From: an uncultured Gammaproteobacteria bacterium
Lineage (GTDB): Bacteria; Patescibacteriota; Microgenomatia; CAZETR01; Amesbacteraceae
Assembly (NCBI GenBank): GCA_964502885.1
Contig: CAZCXU010000001.1
Span: forward strand, 93,352-157,351
DNA: 64,000 nucleotides
Direction of reading: 5' to 3'
Under the pieces are notes generated by a model. The model worked only from the letters and a program-made list of their open reading frames with translations, was not told the origin of the DNA and made no database searches. A program made the translations under genes and the position numbers. Of this stretch, positions 14,529 to 38,773 are shown in pieces. Position 1 is the first letter of the stretch, and each line of letters starts with the position of its first letter.

Positions 14529-15647
14529 ATGAAAACAACAGTTTTACAAAGTGATCTGGCAAAATGTTTGGGAACAGTCAGCAGAGTGATACCCAGCAGA
14601 GGGCAGTTGCCTGTGTTGGCAAATGTGCTATTGGAGGCACGCAAAGATGGATTGACCCTAGTAGCAACAAATCTGGAACTTGGAATTCGTGTAATGGTGG
14701 GGGGAAAGATTGAGGAGGAGGGTGACATAACTATTCCGGCGAAAAACTTAACTGAATTTGTATCATCGTTGCCTGCAGGGAGCGTTGATCTATCGACTGA
14801 TGGGGAGAAGATGCTTATTAAGGGCGGAAAGCTATCTGCGACCTTTACAGGGATTTCAGCGATGGAATTTCCGGTGGTACCAAAGATCGAAAGTGTACAA
14901 GGTGGACGAATAGTAAAGATTAAAAGGGCGATGATGGAAAAAGTTGCAAAACAAGTTGCTTTTGCTGCAGCTACAGATGAGAGTAGGCCAGTTTTGACAG
15001 GTGTGGTTTTTATGAGTGAGGGAAATATATTGAAAATTACGGCAAGTGATGGATTTCGATTGAGCAGGAGATTTATTGAGATGGAAAGGGGGTTATGGTT
15101 ATCGGATAAAAGGTTGATTCTTCCGGCAAGAACACTATTGGAGATGTCAAGAATTGCAGCAGAGGGTAAAAAGGAAGAGATTGAGATGGCTGAAATAGCT
15201 GAGAATAACCAGGTTATTATGGCTTACGATGGAATTCAGCTTACATCGCGGATACTGGAGGGTAATTTTCCTGATGTAGAAAAGATTATTCCCGTGGATA
15301 CCAGAACAAAGATTACTCTTGATAGGCAGGAAATGCTGCGGGCGGTTAAGGCAGTGGGGATATTTGCAAGGGACAGTTCGAATATTATCAGGCTTAGAAT
15401 TCAAGATGGCGGGATGATGGTGGAGGCAAGCGCTACTCAGACAGGAGAGAGCACTGTTGAATTGGAAGGGGAGAAGACTGGAGACGATGGACAGATTGCT
15501 TTCAATTACCGGTTTGTGTTGGACTTTTTGAATAGTGTGGATAGTGAGAGAGTTACCTTTGGAATGAATGACAGCCTGGCCTCAGGGTTGTTTGGAATTG
15601 ATGGTGACAATGAATTGCTGCACTTGATAATGCCGGTAAGAGTCTAA
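14529..15647 (+). CDS. dnaN: DNA polymerase III beta sliding clamp
   Basis: 372 aa with the three-domain clamp pattern, directly after dnaA. Confidence 0.9.
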   Translation: MKTTVLQSDLAKCLGTVSRVIPSRGQLPVLANVLLEARKDGLTLVATNLELGIRVMVGGKIEEEGDITIPAKNLTEFVSSLPAGSVDLSTDGEKMLIKGGKLSATFTGISAMEFPVVPKIESVQGGRIVKIKRAMMEKVAKQVAFAAATDESRPVLTGVVFMSEGNILKITASDGFRLSRRFIEMERGLWLSDKRLILPARTLLEMSRIAAEGKKEEIEMAEIAENNQVIMAYDGIQLTSRILEGNFPDVEKIIPVDTRTKITLDRQEMLRAVKAVGIFARDSSNIIRLRIQDGGMMVEASATQTGESTVELEGEKTGDDGQIAFNYRFVLDFLNSVDSERVTFGMNDSLASGLFGIDGDNELLHLIMPVRV

Positions 15648-16150
15648 TGCTCTCTCTCTGAACTATTTATGACGTCCCCTATTGGTGGTGATTGGGCTGG
15701 GGTAAAAGTCATAATAAAAGGTTCCTGAATATTGGGCACACGAAGATTAATCGTGTATTTCTGGTTCAGTTTCCAAGGTTGATTGGGCGTAAAATAAATT
15801 GTCATTCTATTTTTATGAATAATCTTTTTGAATGAAATTCCAGAATTTGAGACGATGATTAATTTGTCTATTTCTGAAAGAGTCAGAGGGCGGTTGAATG
15901 CGTAATATATGGCTGTAGTAGATCCTGCAATGGCGGGTTTGTTGGTTACCGGAGAGGTGTAAGTAAGTTTAAGTGGTATGTTTGGATCGATTGTGGGTGA
16001 AATAGTCGCTTGTGGCGGAGTAACTTGCACATTATTCGGAAGGAGGGAATTGTTGGTGGCAGGCTGAGAATCAGCAAAAAAAGAAGCAATACCAAGAACA
16101 ATGATTATGGTTACTAATGTAGTGATAATTTTTTTGATTTTGGAATTCAT
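15644..16150 (-). CDS. hypothetical secreted protein (T4SS-like locus, distal gene)
   Basis: N-terminal signal/anchor MNSKIKKIITTLVTIIIVLGIASFFA, then a Pro/Thr-rich linker. Confidence 0.45.
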   Translation of the reverse strand: MNSKIKKIITTLVTIIIVLGIASFFADSQPATNNSLLPNNVQVTPPQATISPTIDPNIPLKLTYTSPVTNKPAIAGSTTAIYYAFNRPLTLSEIDKLIIVSNSGISFKKIIHKNRMTIYFTPNQPWKLNQKYTINLRVPNIQEPFIMTFTPAQSPPIGDVINSSEREH

Positions 16151-16161
16151 ATTGTAATATT

Positions 16162-17028
16162 TTAACCACCGCAGAAATAATTTTCAGGACGAACCCAAAC
16201 TCCGTCTATCTGTGCCTCTAGGTGAAGGTGTGTATTGTTTCCCTGATCAAATAGTGCGGTAACAACTGTACCAGATATGGCATCTGTAGCGTAGGAAGAT
16301 GGCACCATAACATGAGTAAGTACTAAGTGGACAGATGTTGTGCCAGACGTTGTGTCGCAGTAGATGGTATTTCCGACTGAACCATTGGCGAATCCGTAAC
16401 GACATGACCAATTTACACTGACACCGTTTACTTGTGGAAGGACCACTCTGGTATCAGAGGAGAATACGTCAGCTGCAAAACCATATTCTGAGCACGAAGC
16501 TCCTCCCCCGGGCTGGTTACAGCGATTTCCATCAGGTGGGGTGGAGGTCCGACAACCGGACCCTTGTGGTATAGAGTAACAACTACCTCCGTATACGTCT
16601 TCCCAGTAATAAGAACTACCGTGTCCTCCCGAGCGATTGTGTTCCTGTGTGGGATTGTAAGAACCAAGAGATATGACTCCTCCAGGGATAGGGCAACTGC
16701 TGGGGTCAGCAAAACCTCCTCCGGGATCAAAAACTCCACCACCTCCAAAGCCGAATCCAAAACGAGAAACCGGAGTTACGAATCCTGAGCTGTTAATTAC
16801 TATTACAGCCATTAGGATGAAGCCAAAAAATATCGCCGTTGCCAACAATGCGATGAAAGCTGTTCCCAGTAGAGTGACTGCGTCGGCAATAAGGTGTTTT
16901 TTGAAATCTGTACCAAATGTTAGAAGTTTGCCGTAAGAAAAGCTTGATATTTTGGTGATATTAATGCTAAAAGCTGATCGAAGGCGACCAATGAGAGGAT
17001 TTATGGGGCCAATAGATAAACTAGCCAT
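16162..17028 (-). CDS. membrane-anchored Gly/Cys-rich protein with C-terminal M23 (LytM)-like peptidase motif
   Basis: TM anchor and a Gly-rich linker. The C-terminus GNNTHLHLEAQIDGVWVRPENYF resembles the M23 G-x-[ST]-G-x-HLHFE...P..Y motif. Confidence 0.45.
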   Translation of the reverse strand: MASLSIGPINPLIGRLRSAFSINITKISSFSYGKLLTFGTDFKKHLIADAVTLLGTAFIALLATAIFFGFILMAVIVINSSGFVTPVSRFGFGFGGGGVFDPGGGFADPSSCPIPGGVISLGSYNPTQEHNRSGGHGSSYYWEDVYGGSCYSIPQGSGCRTSTPPDGNRCNQPGGGASCSEYGFAADVFSSDTRVVLPQVNGVSVNWSCRYGFANGSVGNTIYCDTTSGTTSVHLVLTHVMVPSSYATDAISGTVVTALFDQGNNTHLHLEAQIDGVWVRPENYFCGG

Positions 17029-17033
17029 TATTC

Positions 17034-17321
17034 TTAATGATGATTAATTTCTTCAAGTAATATGAGCGGAAGTTTGAGCAAATGATCCTTTTCTTCCTGA
17101 TAAGGGTCGGAGAAATGTTCATCTGTAGAGTGTGTTTCCACTTCGCGGCGAAGCTCTTCTGTGCTTTTGTGGAGGACCTGCCCAGCCCATTGCCAAAGCG
17201 GGTCAGCGTCTGTTTTGAACTGATCAAAATTATGACAGGAATTACAGATTTCAATTACGGCGTTTTCCAGACTGCTGACGACAGATGGATTTATGTAGTC
17301 AGGGTAGGCAAAAGTGTTCAT
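17034..17321 (-). CDS. small acidic hypothetical protein
   Basis: 95-aa ORF translationally coupled to the upstream VirB4 gene. Confidence 0.35.
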   Translation of the reverse strand: MNTFAYPDYINPSVVSSLENAVIEICNSCHNFDQFKTDADPLWQWAGQVLHKSTEELRREVETHSTDEHFSDPYQEEKDHLLKLPLILLEEINHH

Positions 17322-19183
17322 TTTGATTCAGGAACCAGTATTGGTTTGGTTTGAGTTTCAGCTTGTTTTTGAGCTAATATTTCGGAGGGTTTGGTGGTAA
17401 TTAGCTTGTGTTCGTCCGGGGATGCTACAAAGCGAACAGCTACGTGATTGTTTCCTGCAAAAAACAGACCTTCTCCAACGTTTGCTGACAGGAGAAGGTG
17501 TTTTTCTCCCTCGGAGAGATAGAAGACCTGGGAAATTTTGTCGACTCCCGCTGGTGATTGTTTCATGAGTATTTGTAGGGAAGAACTGGTGACGATGGCT
17601 TTGCCGTAATCAGTGTTCAAAAAGTCTTCTACGTCCTGAGTAATAGTGGTAAGACCGAGAAAATACTTACGAGCGCGTTTGGCGACGCTGTAGAGGAAAC
17701 TGGCTGAGTCGGGATAACGCATGAGATACCAGGCCTCGTCTACCACAAGAATGCGTTTCTTGAGGTCGCGGCGCATTTTTGTCCAGATATAGTCAAGAAT
17801 GAGAAAGATAGCAATGGGCTTGAGAGAATCTTCGAGATCGCGGACAGAAAAAACTGTAAATTGATTTTTTAGTTGAATATTTGATGGCTGATCGACTATT
17901 CCGGTAAAACTTCCCTTTACAAATCGTTCTAGGCGATCAGCAAGAGATAGGGCTATGGGTTCTTCCATGCCAATGAAAGCTTTGTAAAGATCTTCCATTA
18001 GCGGGGGAGTATTTTTTTGTGTAGCGGGATCAGGGGTGATACCTTTCATACGATAAGCGAGATTGAGGGCGCGATCGAGAAGTGCGTCTTCTGTGGGGCT
18101 AAGGTTTCCCATGATGACTTTGAACATGGAATGCAGCGATTGAATTTTGAGATTAAGCTCGTTTTCATCTGAATTTTGGGTAAGAAGGGAAAGATCAAAG
18201 GGGTTGATGCGATTTTGAGAATTGTAGGAGAAATTGATGTAGTCGCCTCCTACGGCATCACAGAGGGCTTTGTATTCGTTTTCAGGATCTATAACGATTA
18301 TTTCTGTACCAAACATCATGGAACGAACCAGTTCAAGTTTAATGGTGTAAGACTTTCCCGCACCGGATTTGGCGAATACTACTGAGTTGGCGTTTTCCAG
18401 AGAGAAGCGATCAAAAATGACCAAACTGCCGTTGTGCTGATTTATTCCATAGAGGATGCCGTCATTGCTGGTGAGCTCTGATGAGGTGAAAGGGAAGGTG
18501 GTGGCCAGAGAGGTGGTGTCCATGTTTCTGGTGACCATAAGATGGTCGATACAGGTGGGGAGGGTGGTTTTGAAACCTTCAGCCTGCTGGAGGAGTGTGG
18601 GTGTAGAGGCCACTAGAAGAGATGAAAGGGAGCTAGTGACCTGTTTACTGGCAGTTTCAAGTTCGGAGGGGGAATCGGCGGGAATGGTGACATAGAGAGA
18701 GAATTGAAAGAAGCGTTCGATGCCTTTGACGAGTTGATCCTGAAGAGCCAGAGCGTCTTCGAGTTTGGCTTGGGTTACAGGATCGACAACGCGGCCGCGT
18801 TGGGCGTCAGTGTTTAGCTCGGCTTCCATTTCGGCAATCTTTCGACGCAGATCGTCGAGCGTGGACTTGCTTTCTACAGGATAGATGAACATGGAAATAT
18901 TTAGTGAATGGTCAAAATTAATGATGGGACTAAGCCAGTTGCTGGAGACGAAGCGGCGGTTTATTGAGGTGAAGTAGGTGCGGAAATATGTGTCGTTGAT
19001 TTTTAATGAATTGAAATCGATGGTAATGTTTTGTGGGGCGATGATATCCTTGACTGTTTTGGCCTGGGATAATTCTTTTTGGGGGAGAGCCATATTTGTG
19101 TCTGGGACGTTACCGGAGACCTGAGTTGCAGGAGTGGCAGTTTTTTTGACGGGGGTAAGGTTAGGGAGTTTTGGTAGCTTCAT
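17318..19183 (-). CDS. VirB4/TraC/PrgJ-family type IV secretion ATPase, C-terminal (ATPase) portion
   Basis: Walker A FAKSGAGKSYT and Walker B LVVDEAWYL. The VirB4 middle-region motif NWLSPIINFDHSLNISMFIYPV is also present. Confidence 0.8.
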   Translation of the reverse strand: MKLPKLPNLTPVKKTATPATQVSGNVPDTNMALPQKELSQAKTVKDIIAPQNITIDFNSLKINDTYFRTYFTSINRRFVSSNWLSPIINFDHSLNISMFIYPVESKSTLDDLRRKIAEMEAELNTDAQRGRVVDPVTQAKLEDALALQDQLVKGIERFFQFSLYVTIPADSPSELETASKQVTSSLSSLLVASTPTLLQQAEGFKTTLPTCIDHLMVTRNMDTTSLATTFPFTSSELTSNDGILYGINQHNGSLVIFDRFSLENANSVVFAKSGAGKSYTIKLELVRSMMFGTEIIVIDPENEYKALCDAVGGDYINFSYNSQNRINPFDLSLLTQNSDENELNLKIQSLHSMFKVIMGNLSPTEDALLDRALNLAYRMKGITPDPATQKNTPPLMEDLYKAFIGMEEPIALSLADRLERFVKGSFTGIVDQPSNIQLKNQFTVFSVRDLEDSLKPIAIFLILDYIWTKMRRDLKKRILVVDEAWYLMRYPDSASFLYSVAKRARKYFLGLTTITQDVEDFLNTDYGKAIVTSSSLQILMKQSPAGVDKISQVFYLSEGEKHLLLSANVGEGLFFAGNNHVAVRFVASPDEHKLITTKPSEILAQKQAETQTKPILVPESK

Positions 19184-19832
19184 TTTTGACTGATGGAACG
19201 GGAACTTTTGGTAAGGTAACGTTTGTTCCCATTACATCCTGATTATAGGAATTAAAAAATAACTGTAATAGTTCATTTGAGGTTATTTGGCGCCCTTTAA
19301 GACCTATGCGAGCGAGAAGTCGCAACAAATGATCTCTTTTGGGAACAAGGTTTGTAATGGCCCGATCAACTATATAGTCTTTGGGGAGAGTGGTATTTGC
19401 TGACTTACCTCCCAGAACTTTCAGCGAAGAACCAACACCTAATTCAAGTGAACTAAATGGCAAAGATATGTAGAATTTTTTATCCAACACATTTCCCTGA
19501 CGAACGATGGCTTTGACGAAGTCGCGATATTTAGTAAGCTGTTCCTTGAGCTTTGATGTGGTGATTTGGGCAAGGTGAGTGTCCAGTTTTTCGATATAAC
19601 TGGAAATATCTTTTCGTTTGCTGATGAGAACGATTTGGATGGAAAAAGTGAGTGAGTTTAGAAGCTGTGCGTAGGCATAAATGGTGGCGTCCTGCTCTCT
19701 TTCTGAAAGAAGACCAAAGTTGACGGCGCTAATTTCCATGACCATACAGGCCGAGCCGTCTTTGAGAATGACGATGTCGTTTTGAATATCTTCAATGTCC
19801 AGATGATCTTGTGTGCGGGGGGGGATAGTCAT
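19161..19832 (-). CDS. VirB4-family N-terminal domain, separate ORF (split gene or frameshift)
   Basis: DIEDIQNDIVILKDGSACMVMEISAVNFGLLSEREQDATIYAYAQLLNSL matches the N-terminal region of Gram-positive VirB4 homologs. The ORF ends 20 nt inside the start of the ATPase ORF. Confidence 0.5.
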   Translation of the reverse strand: MTIPPRTQDHLDIEDIQNDIVILKDGSACMVMEISAVNFGLLSEREQDATIYAYAQLLNSLTFSIQIVLISKRKDISSYIEKLDTHLAQITTSKLKEQLTKYRDFVKAIVRQGNVLDKKFYISLPFSSLELGVGSSLKVLGGKSANTTLPKDYIVDRAITNLVPKRDHLLRLLARIGLKGRQITSNELLQLFFNSYNQDVMGTNVTLPKVPVPSVKNEATKTP

Positions 19833-19839
19833 ACTTTTT

Positions 19840-20931
19840 TTAGGTTTTTCCGTGAATAATAACAGGGCTAATAATACTGCCTTTGGCTTGAATAGAAACC
19901 GGGTCAAAAGTTAAACCTTCCTTTTCGGCGATGACGTTGTAAGTTCCGGCTGGCAAGGGAATGGCAATTTGGAACTGACCGAGACGATTGGTTCTTAGGG
20001 CCCGTGCAGGAATACCTGTCTTGGTATCAATAATCTCTACAGTTGTTTGTGCTAACGGCTGGGAAGCTGCATCTACAACCATGCCGGTGAGAATATTCGG
20101 ACTGGCAGGATTGGGAAGCTGAGTGGTGACTGTAGCAGATGGGGCTGAAGGAATATTTACAGGTTTGGGAAGCGGGGGAGTGTTAGCAACAACAGCTGAA
20201 ACACCAGAGGAGGTGAGAATTGGTGAGGTAGGAGTGGTGGGTGTAGCTAAAACTGTTTGTGGTGACGCTTCGGCGTGGGGTGTGCCTGCCGATGAGAAAG
20301 AGGTTGAGATGGTTGGAGTTGAGGTGGAATTTTTAACTGGAGATGTAAAGACTGGTTGGGCGCGTGCAGGGGAAGTGGGGATAGGTGCAGAAGAAGGGGC
20401 AGATGTAGGGATAATGGGGGGAACAGTTGAATTAGGAGCGGGTGTGGGAACAATGGAGGAAATGGCTGAGTTAGGAGTAGTTGATGGAGGTAGAGTTTTT
20501 GCGGTGGACATCTGCGGTTCAATTTTTATGGCAGCAGGAATTGGTGCCGGAACGGTGGTGACTGGTTGAGGTGTAGGTGGCGACGGTGGAGCGGCTGTTG
20601 CAGTGGGTGTGATTGGTGGGGGTGGGGCAAGGCTCGCAACGATTTCGTCAGAGATCCAGACATACTCAGTGGGAGAATAGATGGCTTTAAAAAAAGCGAC
20701 GAGCCAAGTGGTAAAGGGTCGATTGTTGATAGGGATAAAGGCCATGAGTGCACCCGTGGTGATGGAAATAAAAACCAGCGGGTATTTGATTATGGGGATT
20801 AATTGGAGACGGAAAATGAGCACCCCCACAACAATGCCTCCTGCCAGCTGGAGAAATTGCTTGAGGGTCATATCGCCCACGAGACGGAACTCGTAGGAGG
20901 AAATATTTTGCGGGACAGGGTGGTTATCCAT
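19840..20931 (-). CDS. PrgI/VirB3-like membrane protein fused to a long Pro/Thr/Ser-rich linker and a C-terminal beta-sandwich (CarbopepD_reg-like) domain
   Basis: N-terminus FRLVGDMTLKQFLQLAGGIVVGVLIF...NNRPFTTWLVAFFKAIYSP resembles the PrgI family and sits directly upstream of VirB4. The C-terminus GTYNVIAEKEGLTFDPVSI is beta-sandwich-like. Confidence 0.4.
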   Translation of the reverse strand: MDNHPVPQNISSYEFRLVGDMTLKQFLQLAGGIVVGVLIFRLQLIPIIKYPLVFISITTGALMAFIPINNRPFTTWLVAFFKAIYSPTEYVWISDEIVASLAPPPPITPTATAAPPSPPTPQPVTTVPAPIPAAIKIEPQMSTAKTLPPSTTPNSAISSIVPTPAPNSTVPPIIPTSAPSSAPIPTSPARAQPVFTSPVKNSTSTPTISTSFSSAGTPHAEASPQTVLATPTTPTSPILTSSGVSAVVANTPPLPKPVNIPSAPSATVTTQLPNPASPNILTGMVVDAASQPLAQTTVEIIDTKTGIPARALRTNRLGQFQIAIPLPAGTYNVIAEKEGLTFDPVSIQAKGSIISPVIIHGKT

Positions 20932-29880: not shown

Positions 29881-29960
29881 CTGTTTTTAATATAGGGCAA
29901 AAAAACAACCCCGGCAAGGGCCCGGGGTTGTTTTGGCCATTTCTGGCCGGTTCCAAAAAC

Positions 29961-30326: not shown

Positions 30327-30379
30327 ATCTCACCGCCTTTCAGTGGAAAGTATAACATAAAATCAGTGCCGGAGGCTAA

Positions 30380-30754
30380 TTAGAGGGGTGTGATAGTGTA
30401 CTCAATGAGATTGACGTTGAAGAGGGTACGGATGATATACAGAATCGCATAGGATGAAAATACGATAGCCAATCCTATGAGAGCATAGCTGATTTTGCGG
30501 CGAGCTTTCTCGACTGCGTCTTTGTCGGATCCAGCGGTAATCCATTGAAACCCACCTATTAGGAGGAATAAGAATGCGGCAACACCTGACAGGCCCAGGA
30601 GGGCAAGAATCGACGTGCGGATATAGCTGGCGGGCTGAATATTGTAGGTGTTAGCAAAAGGAGAGTTGGGGTCGCGTAGATCTATTAATTGCTGGGCATC
30701 AATAGAAGGAGGAAAGAGAAGCAAGCTTGCCAGGAGAGCGAGAATCAGTTTCAT
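30380..30754 (-). CDS. VirB2/TrbC-like pilin paralog 3 of 11
   Basis: Signal peptide plus core LLIGGFQWITAGSDKDAVEKARRKISYALIGLAIVFSSYAILYII. Confidence 0.5.
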   Translation of the reverse strand: MKLILALLASLLLFPPSIDAQQLIDLRDPNSPFANTYNIQPASYIRTSILALLGLSGVAAFLFLLIGGFQWITAGSDKDAVEKARRKISYALIGLAIVFSSYAILYIIRTLFNVNLIEYTITPL

Positions 30755-30782
30755 GTGAGTTCGAGTTTATAAGAAAGGGTTG

Positions 30783-31454
30783 TCAGTTACAAGGGATGCA
30801 GGTAATCAGGCCACATCCAGTCGTGCCGAGCGGAGTCCAAGAGCCGTTTGATTCGCATCGGAAACATGGACCATTTATGACAGATGTTGATCCTAACGTG
30901 CCTGCCGGAATGCATCTTCCAGTTGCAGATCCGCCACAGGCACACATGCCGGATGGTGGGGTGATGTCGCAGCCGGGATCTGTGGGGTTAGTACAAGGAA
31001 TCCCTGAATCCCAGGGATCACTACCAGGAGCAGGTGGGTTGGGGTCGTTGATCTGAGAGGAAATTTCCCCGATATGTCCGAGGTTGAATTGAATTAAATT
31101 GATGTTAAAGAGGGTGCGGAGAGCAAAAAGGAAACTGTAGGCTGAAAAAACAATTACCAGTCCAATTAAAGCCTGAACAACCTTTCTGCGGGCTTTTTCA
31201 ATTGCGTCTTTATCACCACCAGCCAGTATCCACTGAATACCGCCGATAAGCAGGAATATAAAAGAAAAAACTCCTGCCAGTTGGAGGAGAAGGTTTAGAA
31301 GTGTGGTCAATATCATTGATGGGGTGAGGCTGCGAATTGTCGTAAAATCCGGATCGACGTTTTGTTCTATGCCAATGTAGTCTTGTGCTTTTGCGGTTGC
31401 AGGCATTAAGAACATAGAAATAACTGTGGAGATGTGAACCAGGTGGTTTCGCAT
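30783..31454 (-). CDS. VirB2/TrbC-like pilin paralog 4 of 11 with C-terminal Cys-rich extension
   Basis: Pilin core IQWILAGGDKDAIEKARRKVVQALIGLVIVFSAY, plus a ~100-aa C-terminal tail with 12 Cys. Confidence 0.5.
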   Translation of the reverse strand: MRNHLVHISTVISMFLMPATAKAQDYIGIEQNVDPDFTTIRSLTPSMILTTLLNLLLQLAGVFSFIFLLIGGIQWILAGGDKDAIEKARRKVVQALIGLVIVFSAYSFLFALRTLFNINLIQFNLGHIGEISSQINDPNPPAPGSDPWDSGIPCTNPTDPGCDITPPSGMCACGGSATGRCIPAGTLGSTSVINGPCFRCESNGSWTPLGTTGCGLITCIPCN

Positions 31455-31460
31455 GGGTAA

Positions 31461-31802
31461 TTAGAGGTTTCTTAAGGTGAATCCAATCGGATTTACATTA
31501 AATAGGACACGCAATATATAAAGAATGGCGTAGGAAGAAAAGACGATAACTAAACCTATCAGCGCGTTGATGATTTTACGGCGGGCTTTGTCGATACCAT
31601 CTTTGTCGCCACCGGCAGTAATCCACTGAACTCCACCCCAGAGCAGATAAATAAAGAAGCCAACACCAGCAAGACCCAAGAGAAGACTGATGGCTGTAGC
31701 GACATAAGCGGAGGGTTTGAGGTTTGTAATGTAGTCGTAGTTGCTGTCACCAGAATTGACAGTGATGGGAACAAATTGAGCCAATAGGTGTTGGTTGATC
31801 AT
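31461..31802 (-). CDS. VirB2/TrbC-like pilin paralog 5 of 11
   Basis: Core LLWGGVQWITAGGDKDGIDKARRKIINALIGLVIVFSSYAILYIL. Confidence 0.5.
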   Translation of the reverse strand: MINQHLLAQFVPITVNSGDSNYDYITNLKPSAYVATAISLLLGLAGVGFFIYLLWGGVQWITAGGDKDGIDKARRKIINALIGLVIVFSSYAILYILRVLFNVNPIGFTLRNL

Positions 31803-32131
31803 AGTTCAGGAACGTTGAGGGAGAGAATCGAGACGCCAAATAACACTTCGATTATCCAAATGATTACGAATGAAGAAAGAAGTATGGCAATTCCAATAAG
31901 GGCATTACGAATACGGTGTGTGGCTTTCTGGACGCCTTCCTTATCTCCGCCGGCGGTGATATAGGCAAAACCACCCATTAACAAGTTGACGAAAAAATAA
32001 ATTCCACTTAATCCCATGACGGCATTTAAGACGTTTCTTAGTAGCAACTGGACCATGCTGTCAGCCTCGTTGACGTTGATATTTCCGATTTGACTGTTGA
32101 CCGCAGGGTTGACGATGGTAAACAGATACAT
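31799..32131 (-). CDS. VirB2/TrbC-like pilin paralog 6 of 11
   Basis: Core LLMGGFAYITAGGDKEGVQKATHRIRNALIGIAILLSSFVII. ATGA overlap with paralog 5. Confidence 0.5.
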   Translation of the reverse strand: MYLFTIVNPAVNSQIGNINVNEADSMVQLLLRNVLNAVMGLSGIYFFVNLLMGGFAYITAGGDKEGVQKATHRIRNALIGIAILLSSFVIIWIIEVLFGVSILSLNVPEL

Positions 32132-32134
32132 ATT

Positions 32135-32518
32135 TTAAGGTGAAGCAACAATTAACTGCAATCCGAGACGAAAGATGTCCAATCCCAGGAATCGGCCAAT
32201 GATTCCAATTAGTCCGTATGATCCAACAACTATGAACATACCCAATATGGAAGTGGAAAGACGTTTTTTGCTTACCTCCACGGTATTTTTATCGCCACCG
32301 GCACCAATCCACTGCATTCCGGAAAGGACTATTTGATAGATGAACCAAAGTGACGCGACTATAGTGAGTAAACCGAGGATAGAAGAAACAAATTTTTCCA
32401 ACATATCTCCGGGCCCTCCACCTGTGCCAGTCATAAAAAGTCCTGAATGTCCAAATGTACCCAGAGGTCCGACACCGTCAATGTTTCCCAAGTTGACTTG
32501 AGCTAAAAGGTTTCTCAT
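32135..32518 (-). CDS. VirB2/TrbC-like pilin paralog 7 of 11
   Basis: Core MQWIGAGGDKNTVEVSKKRLSTSILGMFIVVGSYGLIGII. Start set at the internal Met (ATGA overlap with paralog 8); the ORF track extends to 32554. Confidence 0.45.
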   Translation of the reverse strand: MRNLLAQVNLGNIDGVGPLGTFGHSGLFMTGTGGGPGDMLEKFVSSILGLLTIVASLWFIYQIVLSGMQWIGAGGDKNTVEVSKKRLSTSILGMFIVVGSYGLIGIIGRFLGLDIFRLGLQLIVASP

Positions 32519-32874
32519 GGGGTGAATATCCGTGGTGAAATAAGCGTGTTCCATCCATTAATACCATACAGGAAGAGGCCGATGACGCTGGCGATGACTA
32601 ATGATCCGGTGACTATGGCTAGTCCCAGAAAGGATTGCCAAATGCGCTCGTGGGCTTTTTGGACCATTTTGGGGTCGCCATTTGCGCTTAAGTATCCATA
32701 CCCTGCCAAAATTAGATTGATCAATGTGTATATACCAGCCAGGATTATGGAGAGTCGGATGAGGCTGCTAAGAATTAAGATAAGACCTTCGCCCTGAGTG
32801 CCAGCTGCGAGTCTGGGATTGTTGTATCCGGATGTCCCAAATGGATTGTCGATAGTGCCGAATGCTCCTAACAT
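32515..32874 (-). CDS. VirB2/TrbC-like pilin paralog 8 of 11
   Basis: Core LILAGYGYLSANGDPKMVQKAHERIWQSFLGLAIVTGSLVIASVIG. Confidence 0.45.
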   Translation of the reverse strand: MLGAFGTIDNPFGTSGYNNPRLAAGTQGEGLILILSSLIRLSIILAGIYTLINLILAGYGYLSANGDPKMVQKAHERIWQSFLGLAIVTGSLVIASVIGLFLYGINGWNTLISPRIFTP

Positions 32875-32880
32875 AGTTTT

Positions 32881-33231
32881 TTAGACGAATGGCGGGTCAA
32901 TTAAGTTTACACCTGTAATGGTAGATATAATCTGAAGTATAAAATAAGCACTAATGACTAGCAATAAGCCCAGAACTCCATAAGTGACGGAATTTTTTCC
33001 TTGCTGAACACGTTGTGGAGGGTTGATTTGTCCGCCAAAGATAATTAGTAAGTAACCTCCGTGGATGATGAGATAAATGAAATAAAGACTGGCGATTGCC
33101 ATGGCATTGAGGAGTAAGAGAGAGACAATATCGCCCAATTGACCACGGAAAGGGGAGGTGGCCCCAACGTTGGGATGGTTGACGAAAAACTTGTCTTGCA
33201 AGTTTACTGGCGGGTTAAGAAGCTGAAACAT
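32881..33231 (-). CDS. VirB2/TrbC-like pilin paralog 9 of 11 (most divergent)
   Basis: Two hydrophobic helices flank the GGQINPPQRVQQGKNSVTYGVLGLLLVISAYFILQII loop. The C-terminus ILQIISTITGVNLI is shared with paralog 10. Confidence 0.4.
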   Translation of the reverse strand: MFQLLNPPVNLQDKFFVNHPNVGATSPFRGQLGDIVSLLLLNAMAIASLYFIYLIIHGGYLLIIFGGQINPPQRVQQGKNSVTYGVLGLLLVISAYFILQIISTITGVNLIDPPFV

Positions 33232-33234
33232 TTT

Positions 33235-33540
33235 TTAGATTAAGTTGGTGCGGGTAATAGTTTGAATTATTTGCAAAATAAAGAAGGCACTAACTACAGT
33301 AAGGAGGCCAAGAAGCGCGTTGGTGATCTGTCTTTTTATCTGCATGAGTTTGGCTTCGTCGCCCAGGCTTCCCATATATGCGAATCCCGCTGTAATCAGA
33401 TGGTAAAGAAAATAGAGTCCGGCTCCGGCCATGGCAAAGAGAATAGTGCGAGAGGCGATTGTTGAGGGTAGTGTGGCACTGGTCGAGAATCGGCCGGAGG
33501 TGTGGATGAAATCGGGAATCTGAGCTAAATGTGAGTTCAT
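33235..33540 (-). CDS. VirB2/TrbC-like pilin paralog 10 of 11
   Basis: Core FAYMGSLGDEAKLMQIKRQITNALLGLLTVVSAFFILQIIQTITRTNLI. Confidence 0.45.
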   Translation of the reverse strand: MNSHLAQIPDFIHTSGRFSTSATLPSTIASRTILFAMAGAGLYFLYHLITAGFAYMGSLGDEAKLMQIKRQITNALLGLLTVVSAFFILQIIQTITRTNLI

Positions 33541-34055
33541 TAGAGTCGGAAACCAAATAAGGAGAGACCTAAGACGTTAAATCCTAAGAAGTTGAGAACG
33601 ACGATGGCGGAAGTGATAAGAATTAAACCTAGTACTGCCGAGGTGAGTGTGTCTTTGGCGGAATTAATTTTTTTAGGGTCGCCTTCAGCGGTGGCAATAG
33701 TGAAACCCGCATATACGATCAGAAGAAGAGTAGCCAGGCCGGCCAAACCAACTGCCCAAGTAGCAATAATCCAGACTGTATTTTGAGTATCGGAGGTGGG
33801 TATACAACCTAAGGCTGTCCTAATAGCACCAGTGCCTGCACAAAAAGGATTTTGAGCATTACATTCTGCTACAGTGTCGCAACAAAGATGTTCCATAGGG
33901 TTTGCACATTGAGGGCGGGCGACACAGGGACTGTAAGTACCCCATATTGTTCGAGAACGGATTTCACACCAGCTGTAAGTTGGATCTGGGAGGGATAATA
34001 CTGACGTGACAAATAAAAGTGTTGTGATAAGTATTCTAAGTGGTGCAGATTTCAC
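33540..34055 (-). CDS. VirB2/TrbC-like pilin paralog 11 of 11 with N-terminal Cys-rich module
   Basis: Signal peptide, an 8-Cys N-terminal module, then the pilin hairpin GFTIATAEGDPKKINSAKDTLTSAVLGLILITSAIVVLNFLGF. Confidence 0.45.
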   Translation of the reverse strand: MKSAPLRILITTLLFVTSVLSLPDPTYSWCEIRSRTIWGTYSPCVARPQCANPMEHLCCDTVAECNAQNPFCAGTGAIRTALGCIPTSDTQNTVWIIATWAVGLAGLATLLLIVYAGFTIATAEGDPKKINSAKDTLTSAVLGLILITSAIVVLNFLGFNVLGLSLFGFRL

Positions 34056-34080
34056 AGATTAAGTTTAGCATAATTCGGGT

Positions 34081-35868
34081 ATGATAATTGGTATGACGAA
34101 AGTGAGACTTACAATAATATGTTTAATAACGTTTTTATGGATAACCATGACATCTTCGGTGCGGGCAGAGGAGTGTGATAATCCAGGAAGTTTGTCTGAT
34201 CCAGTAACAATAACCAGATGCATAGGCAAATTTAATGGAATATTGGAAGCGATTTCGAAAGCAAATTCTAACAACAAGCAGCAGCTGCAGGGGATGCAGC
34301 AACAGATTGCCAAACTACAAGCGCAAATAAAAGCTTTGGAGATGCAAATCGGGGTGCTACAAAAAGGAATATTTGAAAGAGAAGTACGGGTGGGGGTGAA
34401 ACAGGAACTGTTGTCTGCGAAAGTGAGACGTGACTATGTAGTGAAACGAGATCAGCCAATATTGCAGGTGTTGTTTGCTGCTGATGGGGCAGCGGATTTT
34501 TTTCAAGATATGTTTTTGCGGGAGAAGTTGGCGCGGCTGGACCATGCATTGATTGTGTCTGTGGGGGGGGAGATTAAAAATTTGAATGATCAGGCGCAAA
34601 CTTTATCGTCCCAAAAACAAAAACTGGCGAGTCTTCAGGCGCAAGTAGATAAGCAGGCGGATTTTCTACAGGCGGAAGTCGAAAAAGCCAGTAAATATGA
34701 GTCTGATTTGGGAGGGAAGATCTCAGCATTGACCGCTAGGCAACAGGAATTGCTGGCGGAAAAGACTGGGACTATCGCCACTTCGGTCGGAGATGTACCA
34801 CTAGCTGACGATCCGGCCGCGAGACCGGATTACAATCCAGGTTTTTCACCGGCGTTTGCCATGTTTTCGTTCGGGGCGCCACACTTTAAAGGGATGAGCC
34901 AATATGGGGCTTTGGGTAGGGCCAAGGCAGGCCAGAGTTATGAGACCATTCTTAAGGCTTACTATGGTGATGTGAGGATTGTGGATGTGGGAACGGGTTT
35001 TTCGATAAGGACAAGTGCAGGAACAATGCCAATGGAGGATAGATATATGAAGGGGATAGCGGAGATGCCGACGTCGTGGGCAAATGACGGGGGAATGGAG
35101 GCGTTGAAGGCGCAAGCGATAGCGGCCAGAAGCTATGCGTTGAGTTATGTGGGGTGGCGAATGGGTAAACAATCAGCCGGAGGTTCGATTTGTGTGACGG
35201 AAGCGTGTCAGGTATGGAGATCGTCGAAAGCAAACAGTCCCGGAGCGTGGGGAAGTGCTGTTGATCAGACTAAGGGAAAGATTTTGGTGAGTAACAAAAC
35301 GGGAGAAATTATTAGCGCCTGGTATGCGAGTACGTCGGGAGGTTATCAGGAAAGTTATACCACCTTGGGCCATACTACTCCTGGATTTTGGGACACGACA
35401 TCAAATTGGACGAGGTGGGCAGATGGAGCGTATGAGGTAAAAGCAGGAAGTCCGTGGTTTTATAAAGGCTGGTACAAGACCAGGACAGGAAAAACCTGTG
35501 GCAGGGCACATCCGTGGCTTAACCAGGAGGAGTTCTCAGATATGGTGAATGCTGCCATTGTGGTGGAAAGAGGTGGAGATGTGTCGGGAATTTTTCCTGA
35601 AGATGTGAGGAGTTGTTGGGGTGGAAGTGACAATCCATGGTCAAAAGACCGGTTGGCACAGGAAGCGGACAAGCATGGTGGCCGGGTGACGAGTGTCGGT
35701 AGTGTGAGAGTGGAGCATGGAAACAATGGTATTACAAACAAGGTAATACTTTCGACAAATAGAGGAGAAGTTACGATTACCGGAAGTAATTTCAAACGAG
35801 CATTTAATTTGCGCGCCCCAGGAGCTCTAGCTTTGAAGAGTGGACTTTTTAATATCGAAAAGAAGTGA
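34081..35868 (+). CDS. SpoIID/LytB-domain peptidoglycan hydrolase with N-terminal coiled coil
   Basis: Signal peptide, then a heptad-rich region (QQQIAKLQAQIKALEMQIGVLQ). SpoIID signature EALKAQAIAARSYAL. Confidence 0.6.
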   Translation: MIIGMTKVRLTIICLITFLWITMTSSVRAEECDNPGSLSDPVTITRCIGKFNGILEAISKANSNNKQQLQGMQQQIAKLQAQIKALEMQIGVLQKGIFEREVRVGVKQELLSAKVRRDYVVKRDQPILQVLFAADGAADFFQDMFLREKLARLDHALIVSVGGEIKNLNDQAQTLSSQKQKLASLQAQVDKQADFLQAEVEKASKYESDLGGKISALTARQQELLAEKTGTIATSVGDVPLADDPAARPDYNPGFSPAFAMFSFGAPHFKGMSQYGALGRAKAGQSYETILKAYYGDVRIVDVGTGFSIRTSAGTMPMEDRYMKGIAEMPTSWANDGGMEALKAQAIAARSYALSYVGWRMGKQSAGGSICVTEACQVWRSSKANSPGAWGSAVDQTKGKILVSNKTGEIISAWYASTSGGYQESYTTLGHTTPGFWDTTSNWTRWADGAYEVKAGSPWFYKGWYKTRTGKTCGRAHPWLNQEEFSDMVNAAIVVERGGDVSGIFPEDVRSCWGGSDNPWSKDRLAQEADKHGGRVTSVGSVRVEHGNNGITNKVILSTNRGEVTITGSNFKRAFNLRAPGALALKSGLFNIEKK

Positions 35869-35902
35869 AGAGGTTAGAAGATGTTTGGTGTAAAATCAGG
35901 TT

Positions 35903-36628
35903 GTGACTGATCTATACGTTTCTCAGGATAAACATAAGCAAGCGCATGCACATCCTGCGTCTTCTGCTCATGGGCCGCAAGAGAAGAGCGTGACTGAGGG
36001 TGTGACAGCAGGTCAACATGATCAAGTGAGAACACATATCAATGATGTCTTGAAGCGGGTGGGGGAAAAACCCCGCAAAGAACTAGGAGGAGCCTATACT
36101 GTGTTTCCCGGGGTGAAATTTATCCAAAAACAGCAAGATGAGGAAGTGGTATTGATGTTGCGGGCGCACCCGATCACGAATTTTAAGTGGATTGTTACCG
36201 TGATTTTGGCGTTATTGCTTCCAGAGATTCTCATTGCTTTTGGGGCTTTGGCAGAGATTCCCTTCAGGGTTGTATTTGTAGGGAGACTGGTGTGGTATTT
36301 AATGATGTTGGGCTTTTCATTTGAGAAATTTCTGTCGTGGTATTACTCGGTGTTCATTGTGACAAATGAAAGAGTTATTGATATCGATTTTGTCAATTTG
36401 CTATATAGGGTGGTTTCTTATGCCAATCTGGATCACATTGAAGAGCCGGCGATGGTGGCGGGCGGTTTTATCAGGTCAATTTTTAAATATGGGGACGTGT
36501 CTGTGGCTACGGCTGCTGAAAAGTCGACAATCGAGGCTATGGGAGTGCCGCATCCAGATAAGGTGATACGAATCGTTTCTGAGCTGGCGGAGGATTACGA
36601 AAGAGCTCACGGGAGGAGAGACAAATGA
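35903..36628 (+). CDS. membrane protein with bacterial PH (YdbS/YdbT-like) domain
   Basis: EEVVLMLRAHPITNFKWIVTVILALLL plus two TM helices, the typical bPH_2 architecture. Confidence 0.45.
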   Translation: MTDLYVSQDKHKQAHAHPASSAHGPQEKSVTEGVTAGQHDQVRTHINDVLKRVGEKPRKELGGAYTVFPGVKFIQKQQDEEVVLMLRAHPITNFKWIVTVILALLLPEILIAFGALAEIPFRVVFVGRLVWYLMMLGFSFEKFLSWYYSVFIVTNERVIDIDFVNLLYRVVSYANLDHIEEPAMVAGGFIRSIFKYGDVSVATAAEKSTIEAMGVPHPDKVIRIVSELAEDYERAHGRRDK

Positions 36629-36870
36629 ACGAAACAGCAGGTGTGGCGTGGCTACAGAATTTTTTGGTGAGTGGGCCAGAATTAATTCTTAAGGGGTTTT
36701 TGGTAGTGGGGATGCTAATGTATCTATTTTTTGCGCTGGTGGTAATGAAACAGGTGGCAATTATGACGGAAACCTTTGAATCTGAAGTTAACTCAACAGT
36801 GAAATTGTTTGCATGGGGACATTTTCTGTTGACGGTCGTGATTTTGGCTGTGGTGATAGTGGTACTTTAG
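36625..36870 (+). CDS. small two-TM membrane protein
   Basis: 81 aa, translationally coupled (ATGA) to the upstream gene. Confidence 0.35.
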   Translation: MNETAGVAWLQNFLVSGPELILKGFLVVGMLMYLFFALVVMKQVAIMTETFESEVNSTVKLFAWGHFLLTVVILAVVIVVL

Positions 36871-36913
36871 GAGAGGGCAGAGACTTTTGTTTCTGTGATA
36901 TCCTTTTATTGAT

Positions 36914-38773
36914 ATGGAATTAGCCGTGGGAAAAATTTCCGGTAATATGGGTGACAATTTTTGGGGGCAGGTACTGACTTATGCTCCCAATGAAGAAGAC
37001 TTGAAAAATGTCCGTGGAGAGTTGGTTGTGGTATTGGGTATAGATGGGGAGGGTGGGCAAATAGAAACAATGAAAAAAGGGAGGGAGGTATTGAGTGAGA
37101 TTCAAAATGGGTATTTCTCAGGCAAGAAAGAGTCTAATTTTGAATCTCTGAAGGAAGCGGTGGAAACTGGAGTTTCAGGAGATGCGAGGGTGCAGGTCGG
37201 GTGTGTGGCTTTAGCCAGAGATTGCTGGCAAGTTGTGGTTTGGGGCGGAATGGGTGTATGGGTGCAGAACGGAACTAAAAGTGGGTATGTGGTAAGGCCG
37301 GGGAGGGCTTCGGGAGATTTGATTGCTGTGAGCGGAAAGTTGAGTGTGGGAGGTGTGGTGGTTTTGGGCAATCAAGTTTTTTTTGCGGGAATTTCTGAAA
37401 GCGAACTTCCGAAATTTGTTATCCGTGGGGATGTGGACTTTGCCGCTGAGGCAATGAGGGGGGTTTTACAGAAAGCGAGTGGGGTTGGAGGTGGGTGGGT
37501 GGGGGTTGTTTTGAAACAAAATGCTCATAGGGAGACAAAGAAATTTGAGGTAGTAGATAAACAAAAAGAACTTGTTTCTGAAGGGGCTTTTCGGCCAAGC
37601 TATCCAAGCTATGGACAACGACTGCTTAACAAATTCTTGATGGCGGCATCGAGGATTTATGTCAAAAGGGGAGACAGAGAAGATCAGCGGCGAAAAGTGC
37701 GTTATCTGGGGCTAGGGCTAGTGGCTACACTTTTGATAATGGTGGGGGTGGGACATTTTACCGCGAAGAAAAATGATAATTCAAAAAGCGAATCAGTTTT
37801 TTCGTTTGTCTCGGTTGAAGAAAAAATAAATGAAGCCGCTGAGTTGGCCGATCTGAATCCAGCCAGAACTAAGGAGTTACTGATTGATGTGAAGAGTGCG
37901 ATGAGCAATTTGAAAGGAAATAAGAATGATGTTCAAAAAATAGGGGTATTGGAGACCCGATGGAATGAAATCTGGCAAAGAGCTTCCGGGATAGTAAAGT
38001 TGGAAGTGAAAGAAGTTGTGGATCTGACCTTGGTAAGAGAGGGGATGCAGGGGCGGCGGATGGTGAAAGTAAAAGATAAGTTGTTTGTGTTGGATGGGGA
38101 TTTGGGCAGAGTAGTGGAAGTTACATATGCTAACGGATCGGCTAAGGTGGTCGGTGGAGGAAATCCAATCGCACAGGCGACGTTGATTGCCAATTATCTG
38201 GAACGTGTTTTTGTGATGACCCCCAACGGAATGGTTGAGATCGGAGAATCGGTGGTGAAACTGAAGCCTGGTGAAAGTTGGGGAGCTATTGCTGATATGA
38301 AGTTGTTTGGAGGAAATGTGTATTTGCTGGATAGCGAAAAAGGGGAGGTGTGGAGACATCAGGTAAAAGGAGCTGAGTGGGGAAGCGCTCAAAAGTGGCT
38401 GGCGGATGGGAACGGGGGTGCGGCAATTGTGGGCGCAAAATCTATGTTGATAGACGGCAGTATTTATGTAATAGGAAGAAATGGAATGAGTAAGTTTACT
38501 CGGGGAATAGAAGACAGAGTTGCGGTGGAGGGTTTGGATGAAATGTGGGGCGATGGGGTGGTGGCTTGGACAGGAGAAGATGACGAGAATATATATGTGC
38601 TGGATGGTGACAAAAAGCGGATTGTGGTGATTAGTAAACAGGGGGCGTATAAAAAACAATTTGTAGCAGATGTGTTCGCGGGAGCCAGCGATTTAGCTGT
38701 TGATGAGGATCGAGGCGAGATTTTTGTACTTTCCGGTGGTAAAGTCTGGGCTGCAAAGTATGAAAGTAACTAG
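36914..38773 (+). CDS. hypothetical single-pass membrane protein with C-terminal beta-propeller-like repeats
   Basis: Central TM LGLGLVATLLIMVGVGHF. Repeated motifs IYVLDGDKKRIVV, VYLLDSEKGEVWRH, LFVLDGDLGRVVEV and IFVLSGGKVWAAKY. Confidence 0.45.
   Translation: MELAVGKISGNMGDNFWGQVLTYAPNEEDLKNVRGELVVVLGIDGEGGQIETMKKGREVLSEIQNGYFSGKKESNFESLKEAVETGVSGDARVQVGCVALARDCWQVVVWGGMGVWVQNGTKSGYVVRPGRASGDLIAVSGKLSVGGVVVLGNQVFFAGISESELPKFVIRGDVDFAAEAMRGVLQKASGVGGGWVGVVLKQNAHRETKKFEVVDKQKELVSEGAFRPSYPSYGQRLLNKFLMAASRIYVKRGDREDQRRKVRYLGLGLVATLLIMVGVGHFTAKKNDNSKSESVFSFVSVEEKINEAAELADLNPARTKELLIDVKSAMSNLKGNKNDVQKIGVLETRWNEIWQRASGIVKLEVKEVVDLTLVREGMQGRRMVKVKDKLFVLDGDLGRVVEVTYANGSAKVVGGGNPIAQATLIANYLERVFVMTPNGMVEIGESVVKLKPGESWGAIADMKLFGGNVYLLDSEKGEVWRHQVKGAEWGSAQKWLADGNGGAAIVGAKSMLIDGSIYVIGRNGMSKFTRGIEDRVAVEGLDEMWGDGVVAWTGEDDENIYVLDGDKKRIVVISKQGAYKKQFVADVFAGASDLAVDEDRGEIFVLSGGKVWAAKYESN

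Follow-up and report, generated by a model that had tools for sequence, protein, structure and literature searches.

A probable origin-proximal type IV secretion system of the Patescibacteria type in a Candidatus Amesbacteria-like genome: motor core, eleven-pilin array, and a hypervariable slot protein

Introduction

The question raised by the stretch of DNA considered here (64 kb of contig CAZCXU010000001.1, hereafter the window) is what kind of machine is encoded by the block of envelope genes that starts at the end of dnaN and occupies positions 15644-38773 (~23 kb), and whether this block belongs to a mobile element or to the chromosome itself. According to the analysis presented here the block is very probably a chromosomal, origin-proximal type IV secretion system (T4SS) of the Patescibacteria type, carried by a genome similar to Candidatus Amesbacteria (class Microgenomatia). 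Such systems were already published in 2023-2025, including their placement, pilin arrays, and missing conjugation genes, and the window is thus a correct rediscovery of them. Its anatomy consists of a monoderm (MPF_FATA-like) core, which includes a split VirB4 (a TrsD-like part and an ATPase), a PrgI/VirB3-like anchor, and a VirB6-like channel, while the exposed and fast-evolving parts are a Cys-rich giant protein and the ectodomains of VirB6 and PrgI.

A sequence-only reading of the same window had proposed a T4SS-like machine that is chromosomally fixed, not conjugative, and typical of an episymbiotic small-genome bacterium, and this proposal agrees with the lack of mobility genes, the conserved synteny, and the literature. 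All components that it had named are present where it had placed them: the identities of the VirB4 ATPase, the PrgI/VirB3-like protein, the 11 VirB2-like pilins, the SpoIID-like hydrolase, and the 1220-amino acid (aa) Cys-rich secreted giant were confirmed, and those of the VirB6/TrbL-like and M23-like proteins held in part, as described below. Its inventory was incomplete, since the TrsD-like gene (19161-19907) and a 926-aa plus-strand open reading frame (ORF; 21182-23962) had been left unlisted.

Conserved Motor Core

The VirB4-type ATPase (17318-19183, minus strand) was recognised by Pfam and NCBIfam as the C-terminal, MPF_FATA-like motor part of such proteins. In Pfam it matches P-loop_TraG with an E-value (E) of 2.5e-29 and also AAA_10, and it reaches 377.5 bits against the NCBIfam model conju_CD1110, for which the cutoff is 325; the Walker A (GAGKS) and Walker B (VVDEAW) motifs are intact in the translation. 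The match covers positions 183-734 of the 752 positions of the conju_CD1110 profile, and because it begins at position 183 the usual N-terminal domain is missing from this protein. The similarity to the archaeal DNA importer CedB is weak (E 5e-11, 41.9 bits versus a cutoff of 700).

For comparison a VirB4 scan of species-representative genomes was used, which yielded 422 relatives, and 80 loci (L001-L080) were taken from them for neighbourhood counts; two longer contigs, L081 and L082, are centred on homologues of the giant protein. The gene that overlaps virB4 (g248; 19161-19907, minus strand, with a true start probably at the ATG at 19832) encodes a TrsD-like protein, assigned by NCBIfam as the split-off N-terminal domain of VirB4. 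It matches VirB4_plasma at positions 83-229 of 894 (E 2.7e-9) and TrsD (E 8.9e-6), in both cases under the curated cutoff; its homologues have the TraC-like domain PF26593, and the family profile produced a marginal match in the PDB to "DciF" (entries 9vtc and 9lwv, E 0.024, about 120 aligned positions). Four loci have one continuous reading frame of 787-822 aa for the TrsD-like protein and VirB4 together.

Several side observations concern the state of this gene pair. The fused ORFs belong to Amesbacteria-like loci (L005:390-2831, L011:9278-11743, L012:9344-11716, and L013:7477-9837); the two genes are separate in the window, with a 23-nt overlap, and in most other loci, and the split and fused states alternate between close relatives. 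In L082 (18399-21899) the VirB4 gene is extended to 1166 aa by an intein with a LAGLIDADG homing endonuclease inside the ATPase domain (Intein_splicing, LAGLIDADG_3), and the VirB4 of the window aligns on either side of this insert.

The PrgI/VirB3-like membrane protein (19840-20931, minus strand) matches PF12666 with E 5.7e-8 and 33.6 bits, above the gathering score of 27, and PF13620 with E 6.7e-9. It is composed of two hydrophobic helices, a Pro/Thr/Ser-rich linker, and a C-terminal CarboxypepD_reg beta-sandwich; its homologue in L081 contains both PF12666 and PF13620, and the full-length homologue in L082 contains a weak CarboxypepD_reg domain. Two smaller products are encoded downstream of VirB4. 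The first is a small soluble protein (g95; 17034-17321, minus strand), which follows VirB4 directly, had no family match in Pfam and NCBIfam searches, and is kept in the same position in 7 loci and in L081 with 43-59% identity. The second, the last gene of the VirB4 operon (g168; 15644-16150, minus strand), encodes a membrane-anchored or exported Ig-like protein (Big_5, PF13205, E 7.6e-7) with an N-terminal hydrophobic helix, and its homologues are similarly placed in L003 and L004.

Synteny and Conservation Gradient

The best relatives of the VirB4 protein are found in Candidatus Amesbacteria (78-90% identity) and the next ones in Shapirobacteria, Curtissbacteria, Beckwithbacteria, and Woesebacteria, all of the class Microgenomatia; mislabelled records aside, all 422 relatives come from metagenome-assembled genomes of Patescibacteria. 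As a side observation, many of the L001-L080 records are titled "uncultured Gammaproteobacteria", "Pseudomonadales", "Bathyarchaeia", "Clostridia", or "Nevskiaceae", yet contain a dnaA-dnaN-VirB4 locus of the Microgenomatia type (VirB4 62-84%), and these records therefore look taxonomically mislabelled.

Among the 80 loci VirB4 is adjoined by dnaN in 60, by dnaA in 58, by a TrsD-like gene in 75, and by PrgI in 73, so that the location is constant in 58-60 of them. The synteny comparison suggested by the sequence-only reading showed the order yidC-rnpA-dnaA-dnaN-[M23/hydrolase]-VirB4-TrsD-PrgI-...-VirB6-like-giant-pilins recurring in Amesbacteria and other Microgenomatia, and the architecture of the entire 23-kb block repeated in L081 and L082, including the divergent operon of SpoIID, g241, DUF5657, and g619.

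Median identities to the window, taken over the 20 closest loci, were 80% for VirB4, 63% for the TrsD-like protein, 62% for PrgI, 59% for DnaA, and 54% for DnaN, and decreased to 36% for the M23-like protein, 34% for the giant, and 32% for the VirB6-like protein, while no counterpart of the 926-aa ORF product (g926) was detectable in this comparison. This gradient, from VirB4 through TrsD, PrgI, and DnaA to the VirB6-like, giant, and M23-like proteins and finally to g926, agrees with a machine in which the motor is conserved and other parts are exposed and face the host. The locus is not a mobile element: its core machine is inherited vertically, and its exposed parts evolve fast.

Pilin Array

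Eleven VirB2-like pilin genes occupy positions 29485-34055 of the minus strand, and all were recognised as PF18895 (T4SS_pilin). They are located at 29485-29880, 29961-30326, 30380-30754, 30783-31454, 31461-31802, and 31799-32131 (pilins 1-6) and at 32135-32554, 32515-32874, 32881-33231, 33235-33540, and 33540-34055 (pilins 7-11). The PF18895 match is above the gathering score in 7 of the 11, four are also weakly similar to TrbC/VirB2, and a two-helix hairpin is present in each. The sequence-only reading had called such an array unusual, which is correct against classical T4SSs and incorrect within Patescibacteria, where arrays of 2-11 genes are found.

The identity between the paralogues is 28% on average and 58% at maximum. 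In L081, where VirB4 is 84% identical to that of the window, all eleven pilins have reciprocal best hits in identical order, at identities of 41-69% that are well in excess of what the paralogues show. Colinear orthology of this kind in 11 of 11 genes, above the identity of the paralogues, argues for an old set in which the eleven pilins would have distinct roles, rather than for recently amplified interchangeable variants. If these pilins are indeed fixed, non-interchangeable orthologues, a hetero-oligomeric pilus would be implied and not a store of antigenic-variation cassettes.

Two members of the array are extended by Cys-rich regions, a feature shared by their L081 orthologues. The pilin at 30783-31454 (223 aa) carries a 110-aa C-terminal tail with 10 Cys, and the pilin at 33540-34055 (171 aa) has an 80-aa N-terminal region with 8 Cys. 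Both may serve as minor pilins or sit at the tip, or they may form a connection to the Cys-rich giant.

Channel, Giant Protein, and Wall Hydrolases

The gene at 24021-25751 (g576, minus strand) encodes a polytopic protein which was assigned as a VirB6-like channel by structure comparison and which possesses an N-terminal extracytoplasmic helical domain of ~230 aa. It matches TrwI structurally (Foldseek E 0.07), the structure comparison being the one approach that gave a match, while its profile found nothing among PDB sequences and its search against PF04610 (TrbL/VirB6) was without match; of 20 relatives 2 match this family, with E of at least 5.9e-4. The VirB6/TrbL-like label proposed earlier is thus favoured by structural likeness and not by the PF04610 search, and this likeness suggests that g576 would work like VirB6, though it is not a recognised Pfam member.

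The neighbouring giant (g1220; 25798-29460, minus strand) is a secreted protein of 1220 aa, as indicated by its N-terminal hydrophobic segment, and contains 40 Cys. All of its 14 homologues are hypothetical proteins, and the gene is always placed between the pilin array and the VirB6-like gene. The AlphaFold2 (AF2) model based on 14 sequences was poor, with a predicted local distance difference test (pLDDT) value of 44.8; Foldseek found no fold match with this model, and the comparison of the profile with the PDB produced noise. By its features g1220 is a candidate surface, tip, or host-contact protein, and the motif "WLNESDAS" permits a guess that its C-terminus is a lytic transglycosylase.

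Two proteins of the block are related to peptidoglycan hydrolases. The first is a single-pass membrane protein of 288 aa (g288; 16162-17028, minus strand), in which a divergent M23/LytM-like peptidase domain was recognised by its family profile. It has no Pfam match of its own, against the M23 assignment made from the sequence; in its favour, the family profile matched no PDB entries other than M23 peptidases (3slu with E 2.3e-3, lysostaphin, zoocin A, ShyA, and SpoIIQ), and the homologues in L081 and L082 pass PF01551. The matches with M23 structures cover only the C-terminal half, the invariant residues of the family are H136, D187, H239, and H267-L-H269-x-E271, and the canonical HxxxD spacing is not seen. 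This protein is a putative peptidoglycan peptidase that may play a VirB1-type role. In other Amesbacteria the M23-like domain is the C-terminus of proteins of 641-1917 aa encoded downstream of VirB4, and the window version is a minimal one.

The second is the SpoIID-like lytic transglycosylase (34081-35868, plus strand; PF08486, E 1.2e-14), which has an N-terminal anchor and a coiled coil and is divergent from the pilins, a placement found also in L081, L082, and L064. It opens an operon with three more membrane proteins on the plus strand. The product of g241 (35903-36628) has no significant family match but a weak bPH_2-like C-terminus (E 0.015), and its homologues are similarly placed in L081 (67% identical) and L082 (40% identical). 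It is followed by a small DUF5657 membrane protein (36625-36870; PF18901, E 1.2e-16), whose gene is similarly placed in the same two contigs. The last is g619 (36914-38773), a single-pass protein with a hydrophobic helix at residues 262-280 and a C-terminal half that looks repeat-rich; it has no significant family match (NHL, E 0.022, is weak), the 3' end of the gene overlaps the smpB ORF, and homologues are similarly placed in L081, L082, and L064. The operon of SpoIID, g241, DUF5657, and g619 beside the pilin array is conserved, as seen in L081 and L082.

Variable Slot between the VirB6-like Gene and PrgI

The slot flanked by the VirB6-like gene and PrgI is occupied in the window by g926 (21182-23962), which is encoded on the plus strand, opposite to its neighbours, and whose product is a large, soluble, acidic protein of 926 aa. 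No transmembrane segment, signal peptide, or Walker A motif/P-loop was found in it, and there was no match in Pfam, NCBIfam, or PDB sequence searches. Among 1.84e9 representative proteins phmmer found only 2 partial relatives, the word-index search found the protein itself only, and jackhmmer over the locus ORFs did not go beyond the two relatives. The alignment of the 12-member cluster of g926 has hardly any conserved columns and was not used as a profile.

The position itself is well preserved: of the 45 loci whose sequence sufficed for this count, 37 encode the largest ORF directly upstream of PrgI on the opposite strand. These slot ORFs encode 300-2122 aa (median 802 aa) and group into 8 small clusters and 12 singletons, and the comparison of the seven main clusters by hhalign gave no profile-profile link above 52% probability. 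They are usually transcribed divergently from the VirB4 operon, with soluble products of typically 500-1300 aa, and they are replaced or become unrecognisable between genomes whose VirB4 proteins stay 75-90% identical. The slot proteins are acidic overall, but the net charge of their C-terminal 20 residues is +1.8 versus +0.46 for the remaining ORFs of these loci (p = 4e-6); that of g926 itself is only +1.

On these features the best candidate for a substrate or specificity factor particular to the lineage is the hypervariable slot protein, although the proposal that slot proteins are in fact lineage-specific T4SS substrates or host-specificity factors must be regarded as doubtful at present. 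If they are substrates, the Patescibacteria T4SS would gain its first concrete candidates for a cargo, and the import-or-export question would become experimentally approachable.

Chromosomal Setting

The ORF listing and the Pfam scans of all large ORFs indicate that the window is a housekeeping segment of the chromosome, with jag, yidC, rnpA, dnaA, and dnaN on one flank of the block and smpB, the transfer-messenger RNA (tmRNA) gene, a comF-like gene, tRNAs, glycosyltransferases, dnaG, and rpoD on the other. The spacer between dnaA and dnaN (14276-14528, no strand; both genes identified by Pfam) contains a cluster of DnaA boxes, with perfect boxes TTATCCACA at 14381 and 14471 and one-mismatch boxes at 14290 and 14333; a third perfect box is found at 12887, upstream of dnaA. 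From the position of these boxes the replication origin (oriC) was placed in this spacer, which is its likely site, and the distance from the cluster to the T4SS block is ~1.2 kb. The nearest tRNA gene is at 42625, with none in or adjoining the block, and a promoter/terminator scan gave a signal at shuffle level.

Some observations are added on the rest of the segment. The GC skew is above 0 in all 2-kb bins of the window (1-64000), with values of 0.3-0.45 over plus-strand genes and about 0.1-0.2 over minus-strand genes; its sign does not change at the DnaA-box cluster, and the skew therefore follows the coding strand more than the direction of replication. At 1430-2485 a single 351-aa ORF is a Sua5/YrdC-TsaE fusion, followed by an overlapping TsaD gene, which together form a compact t6A-synthesis module. 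Two DUF4012 proteins (6671-8806, 711 aa; 57846-59279, 477 aa) are encoded amid glycosyltransferase genes, as are the large ORFs without family match at 50225-51724, 51662-52852, 55191-56297, and 56275-57816, and all of them look like envelope or glycan genes. The minus-strand positions 39873-40202 and 40241-40639 hold a 109-aa stand-alone GIY-YIG nuclease-domain ORF and the tmRNA gene that it directly adjoins; this ORF sits between the T4SS block and the comF-like gene, and a 46%-identical copy lies near the block in L082.

Function and Rival Explanations

The block is not a conjugation apparatus. Pfam found no domains of VirD4/coupling proteins, relaxases, integrases, or transposases in the 30 flanking ORFs of the 64-kb window, no relaxase (MOB) was found in the 57 ORFs scanned there, and no type IV coupling protein (T4CP; VirD4, TcpA) either, VirB4 being the sole VirB4/HerA/FtsK-like P-loop protein of the window. 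The earlier claim that VirD4, relaxase, and mobility genes are lacking is upheld for these 64 kb and applies to them only.

The following mechanism can be proposed by analogy, because the roles of VirB4, VirB3, VirB6, VirB2, and VirB1 are established in other T4SSs. The M23-like and SpoIID-like hydrolases would open the wall of the parasite itself, and VirB4 with TrsD, seated on PrgI and VirB6, would supply the energy to extract pilins from the membrane and to assemble them into a pilus or tube. This tube, with the giant at its tip or as decoration, would contact the envelope of the host cell and could serve as a conduit for macromolecules between host and epibiont.

Several points weigh against this interpretation. 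The VirB6 and M23 assignments depend on a structural match and a profile match that are moderately strong (Foldseek E 0.07 and PDB profile E 2e-3, respectively), the SpoIID operon could be merely a syntenic cell-wall or division module, and no VirB8-like protein was identified in the window, nor were VirB5, VirB7, VirB9, VirB10, or VirB11. A VirD4-like T4CP may be encoded elsewhere in the genome, outside the window, which covers 64 kb of a 159-kb contig, and in PMC12102498 VirD4-like homologues are reported for most Patescibacteria genomes, far from virB4. Furthermore, the essentiality of the system appears to be known from one species of Saccharimonadia only and not from Microgenomatia, and the formation of a pilus by these pilins is a prediction.

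As for the origin of the block, it is most improbable that it represents a decayed integrative conjugative element, that is, a Gram-positive-type module which has lost its relaxase, coupling protein, and integrase. Such a history would suit the best score of VirB4, which was obtained with the conjugative family CD1110 of Clostridioides transposons, and an ancient transfer from monoderm conjugative elements is inferred in PMC12102498; however, the gene order beside dnaN, dnaA, rnpA, and yidC is constant across many Microgenomatia lineages, VirB4 is 80% identical between relatives versus 59% for DnaA and keeps intact ATPase motifs, every ORF is full length, integrase, transposase, and relaxase are not found in the window, no tRNA gene is in or adjoining the block, and the orthologous cluster is essential in Southlakia epibionticum (PMC10633639). 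This explanation was rejected in view of the fixed location, the conserved VirB4, and the lack of mobility genes in the window. Concerning function, an unlikely alternative is a dedicated DNA-uptake machine, similar to ComB or Ced/Ted, that imports host DNA as a nucleotide source together with ComF/ComEC. The sequence-only reading had stated that comF is 2 kb away and had offered DNA uptake as one of two possible uses; the comF-like gene (40706-41392) is indeed 1.9 kb from the block, but it is separated from it by smpB, a DUF218 gene, the GIY-YIG gene, and the tmRNA gene, in none of the 80 loci (0/80) does comF lie within 10 kb of VirB4, and it is not beside the block in L081 or L082. Since comF is unlinked in these relatives, its presence as a neighbour adds nothing to the DNA-uptake explanation and was dismissed as incidental. 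The remaining similarity is that of VirB4 to CedB (E 5e-11), far under the cutoff. In the literature DNA import was proposed, with comF, recG, and radA near the T4SS in ABY1 (PMC12102498), but in Southlakia the T4SS is essential, whereas comEC is required for transformation and dispensable for growth (PMC10633639, PMC12857230), and a 2026 preprint suggests that the nutrient is host RNA and not DNA.

The export of effectors, in which lineage-specific proteins would be injected into the host bacterium with the slot ORF product g926 as cargo, overlaps with the interpretation as a host-contact T4SS and can be entertained only tentatively, at somewhat better odds than DNA uptake. Charged C-terminal signals are known from VirB/D4 substrates, and the basic tails of the slot proteins (+1.8 versus +0.46, p = 4e-6) resemble them; the tail of g926 is just +1, and the cluster has no T4CP for substrate recruitment. 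The slot position is conserved (37/45 loci), and its products are soluble, acidic, without Sec signals, and extremely divergent, but such fast evolution could equally mean a scaffold under relaxed constraint, and no toxin or enzyme domain was found in Pfam, NCBIfam, and PDB searches. Protein export was suggested as an option by Wang et al. (PMC10633639), and at the same time the protein SEML1_0011 of Southlakia is essential, is encoded on the operon strand, and has a permease-type label, which fits a structural part better than cargo.

Comparison with Known Systems

The interpretation as a Patescibacteria-type T4SS of host contact can be compared first with the survey of Quinonero-Coronel (2025, Microb Genom; PMC12102498), in which VirB4 was found in 2,417 of 3,035 Patescibacteria genomes. 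According to this study the Patescibacteria VirB4 clade is nested in MPF_FATA and is accompanied by TrsD, PrgI/VirB3, VirB6, and VirB2-like pilins; relaxases are almost absent, and the system is located near dnaA, dnaN, and rnpA. The 441 pilin arrays reported there comprise 2-11 genes, especially in Microgenomatia and Saccharimonadia, with a mean identity of 25% and a maximum of 54%. The import of DNA or other macromolecules was proposed, and comF, recG, and radA were noted near the T4SS in the class ABY1. The window corresponds to this description: its VirB4 is above the conju_CD1110 cutoff with Amesbacteria as top matches, as judged from similarity searches and not from a tree, TrsD-like and PrgI genes adjoin virB4, a VirB6-like polytopic protein and a divergent VirB2-like array are present, the window contains no relaxase, and the chromosomal placement is near dnaA/dnaN. 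Nothing in it is different in kind from the clade as described in that survey, and its 11 pilins are at the top of the 2-11 range. VirB6 was scarce or undetectable by hidden Markov models (HMM) in Microgenomatia in the survey, whereas in the window a VirB6-like candidate was indicated by structure. The sections of PMC12102498 on VirB4 phylogeny, gene repertoire, chromosomal context, and conclusions do not describe the hypervariable opposite-strand ORF, the Cys-rich giant, the one-to-one orthology of pilins, or the SpoIID operon, and the slot ORF, the colinear pilin set, and the SpoIID operon are likewise not described in the portions of PMC10633639 drawn on here.

The latter study (Wang 2023, Cell) demonstrated by transposon sequencing (Tn-seq) that the T4SS of Southlakia epibionticum ML1 (SEML1_0006-0019), in which coupling and relaxase proteins could not be recognised, is essential for growth as an epibiont. 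The cluster SEML1_0004-0019 adjoins dnaA, dnaN, and recF, similarly to the position of the block near dnaA/dnaN in the window, and its order is that of the window: an exported Ig-like protein, hydrolases, VirB4, a TrsD-like protein, PrgI, a large protein, VirB6, and pilins, with the exported Ig-like PEGA protein SEML1_0005 as the counterpart of g168. The differences reported between the two are in the details. Southlakia has 6 pilins on the opposite strand, while the 11 of the window are co-oriented with VirB6; its VirB6 is 1088 aa long versus 576 aa; its hydrolases are of the lysozyme and DD-peptidase type, while those of the window are M23-like and SpoIID; it has an NTF2-like (VirB8-like) gene, of which none was found in the window, and the 1220-aa Cys-rich giant is listed among the differences on the side of the window. 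The slot protein SEML1_0011 (998 aa), which is essential and has a permease-type KEGG label, is encoded on the operon strand, while the slot ORF of the window is on the opposite strand, and the likeness of SEML1_0011 and g926 is positional only.

With Gram-positive T4SSs the window shares the conju_CD1110 family of VirB4, TrsD, PrgI, a membrane-anchored wall hydrolase downstream of VirB4, and the lack of an outer-membrane core; it differs from them in showing no T4CP, relaxase, recognisable origin of transfer (oriT), or PrgB-type adhesin, in having VirB2-like pilins, which those systems do not possess, and in being fixed on the chromosome at the origin instead of being carried on a plasmid or integrative conjugative element. 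The diderm VirB/Trw systems (Agrobacterium VirB, R388 Trw) have in common with it two-helix VirB2-type pilins, the VirB6-like stalk/channel (TrwI), and the VirB3/VirB4 pair, but VirB5, VirB7, VirB9, VirB10, VirB11, and VirD4 were not found in the window, and eleven pilin paralogues are present instead of one. The common features with Helicobacter ComB and archaeal Ced/Ted are a relaxase-less T4SS core of non-conjugative use and the weak similarity to CedB, while none of their partner families (ComB2-10, CedA/A1/A2) had a match among the block ORFs in Pfam and NCBIfam.

In a 2025 review the Patescibacteria systems are listed as a new T4SS type, with a pilus speculated to be a conduit for uptake or signalling, and are mentioned as the sole T4SS so far shown to be essential to its carrier bacterium (PMC12857230); tubular structures observed at the parasite-host interface may be T4SS pili (bioRxiv 10.64898/2026.06.21.733656). 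The window adds no new kind of system to this group but is a clean and complete example from Microgenomatia, and it provides three leads: a structural VirB6 candidate for a class poor in HMM matches, a fixed colinear set of 11 pilins, and a hypervariable soluble slot protein.

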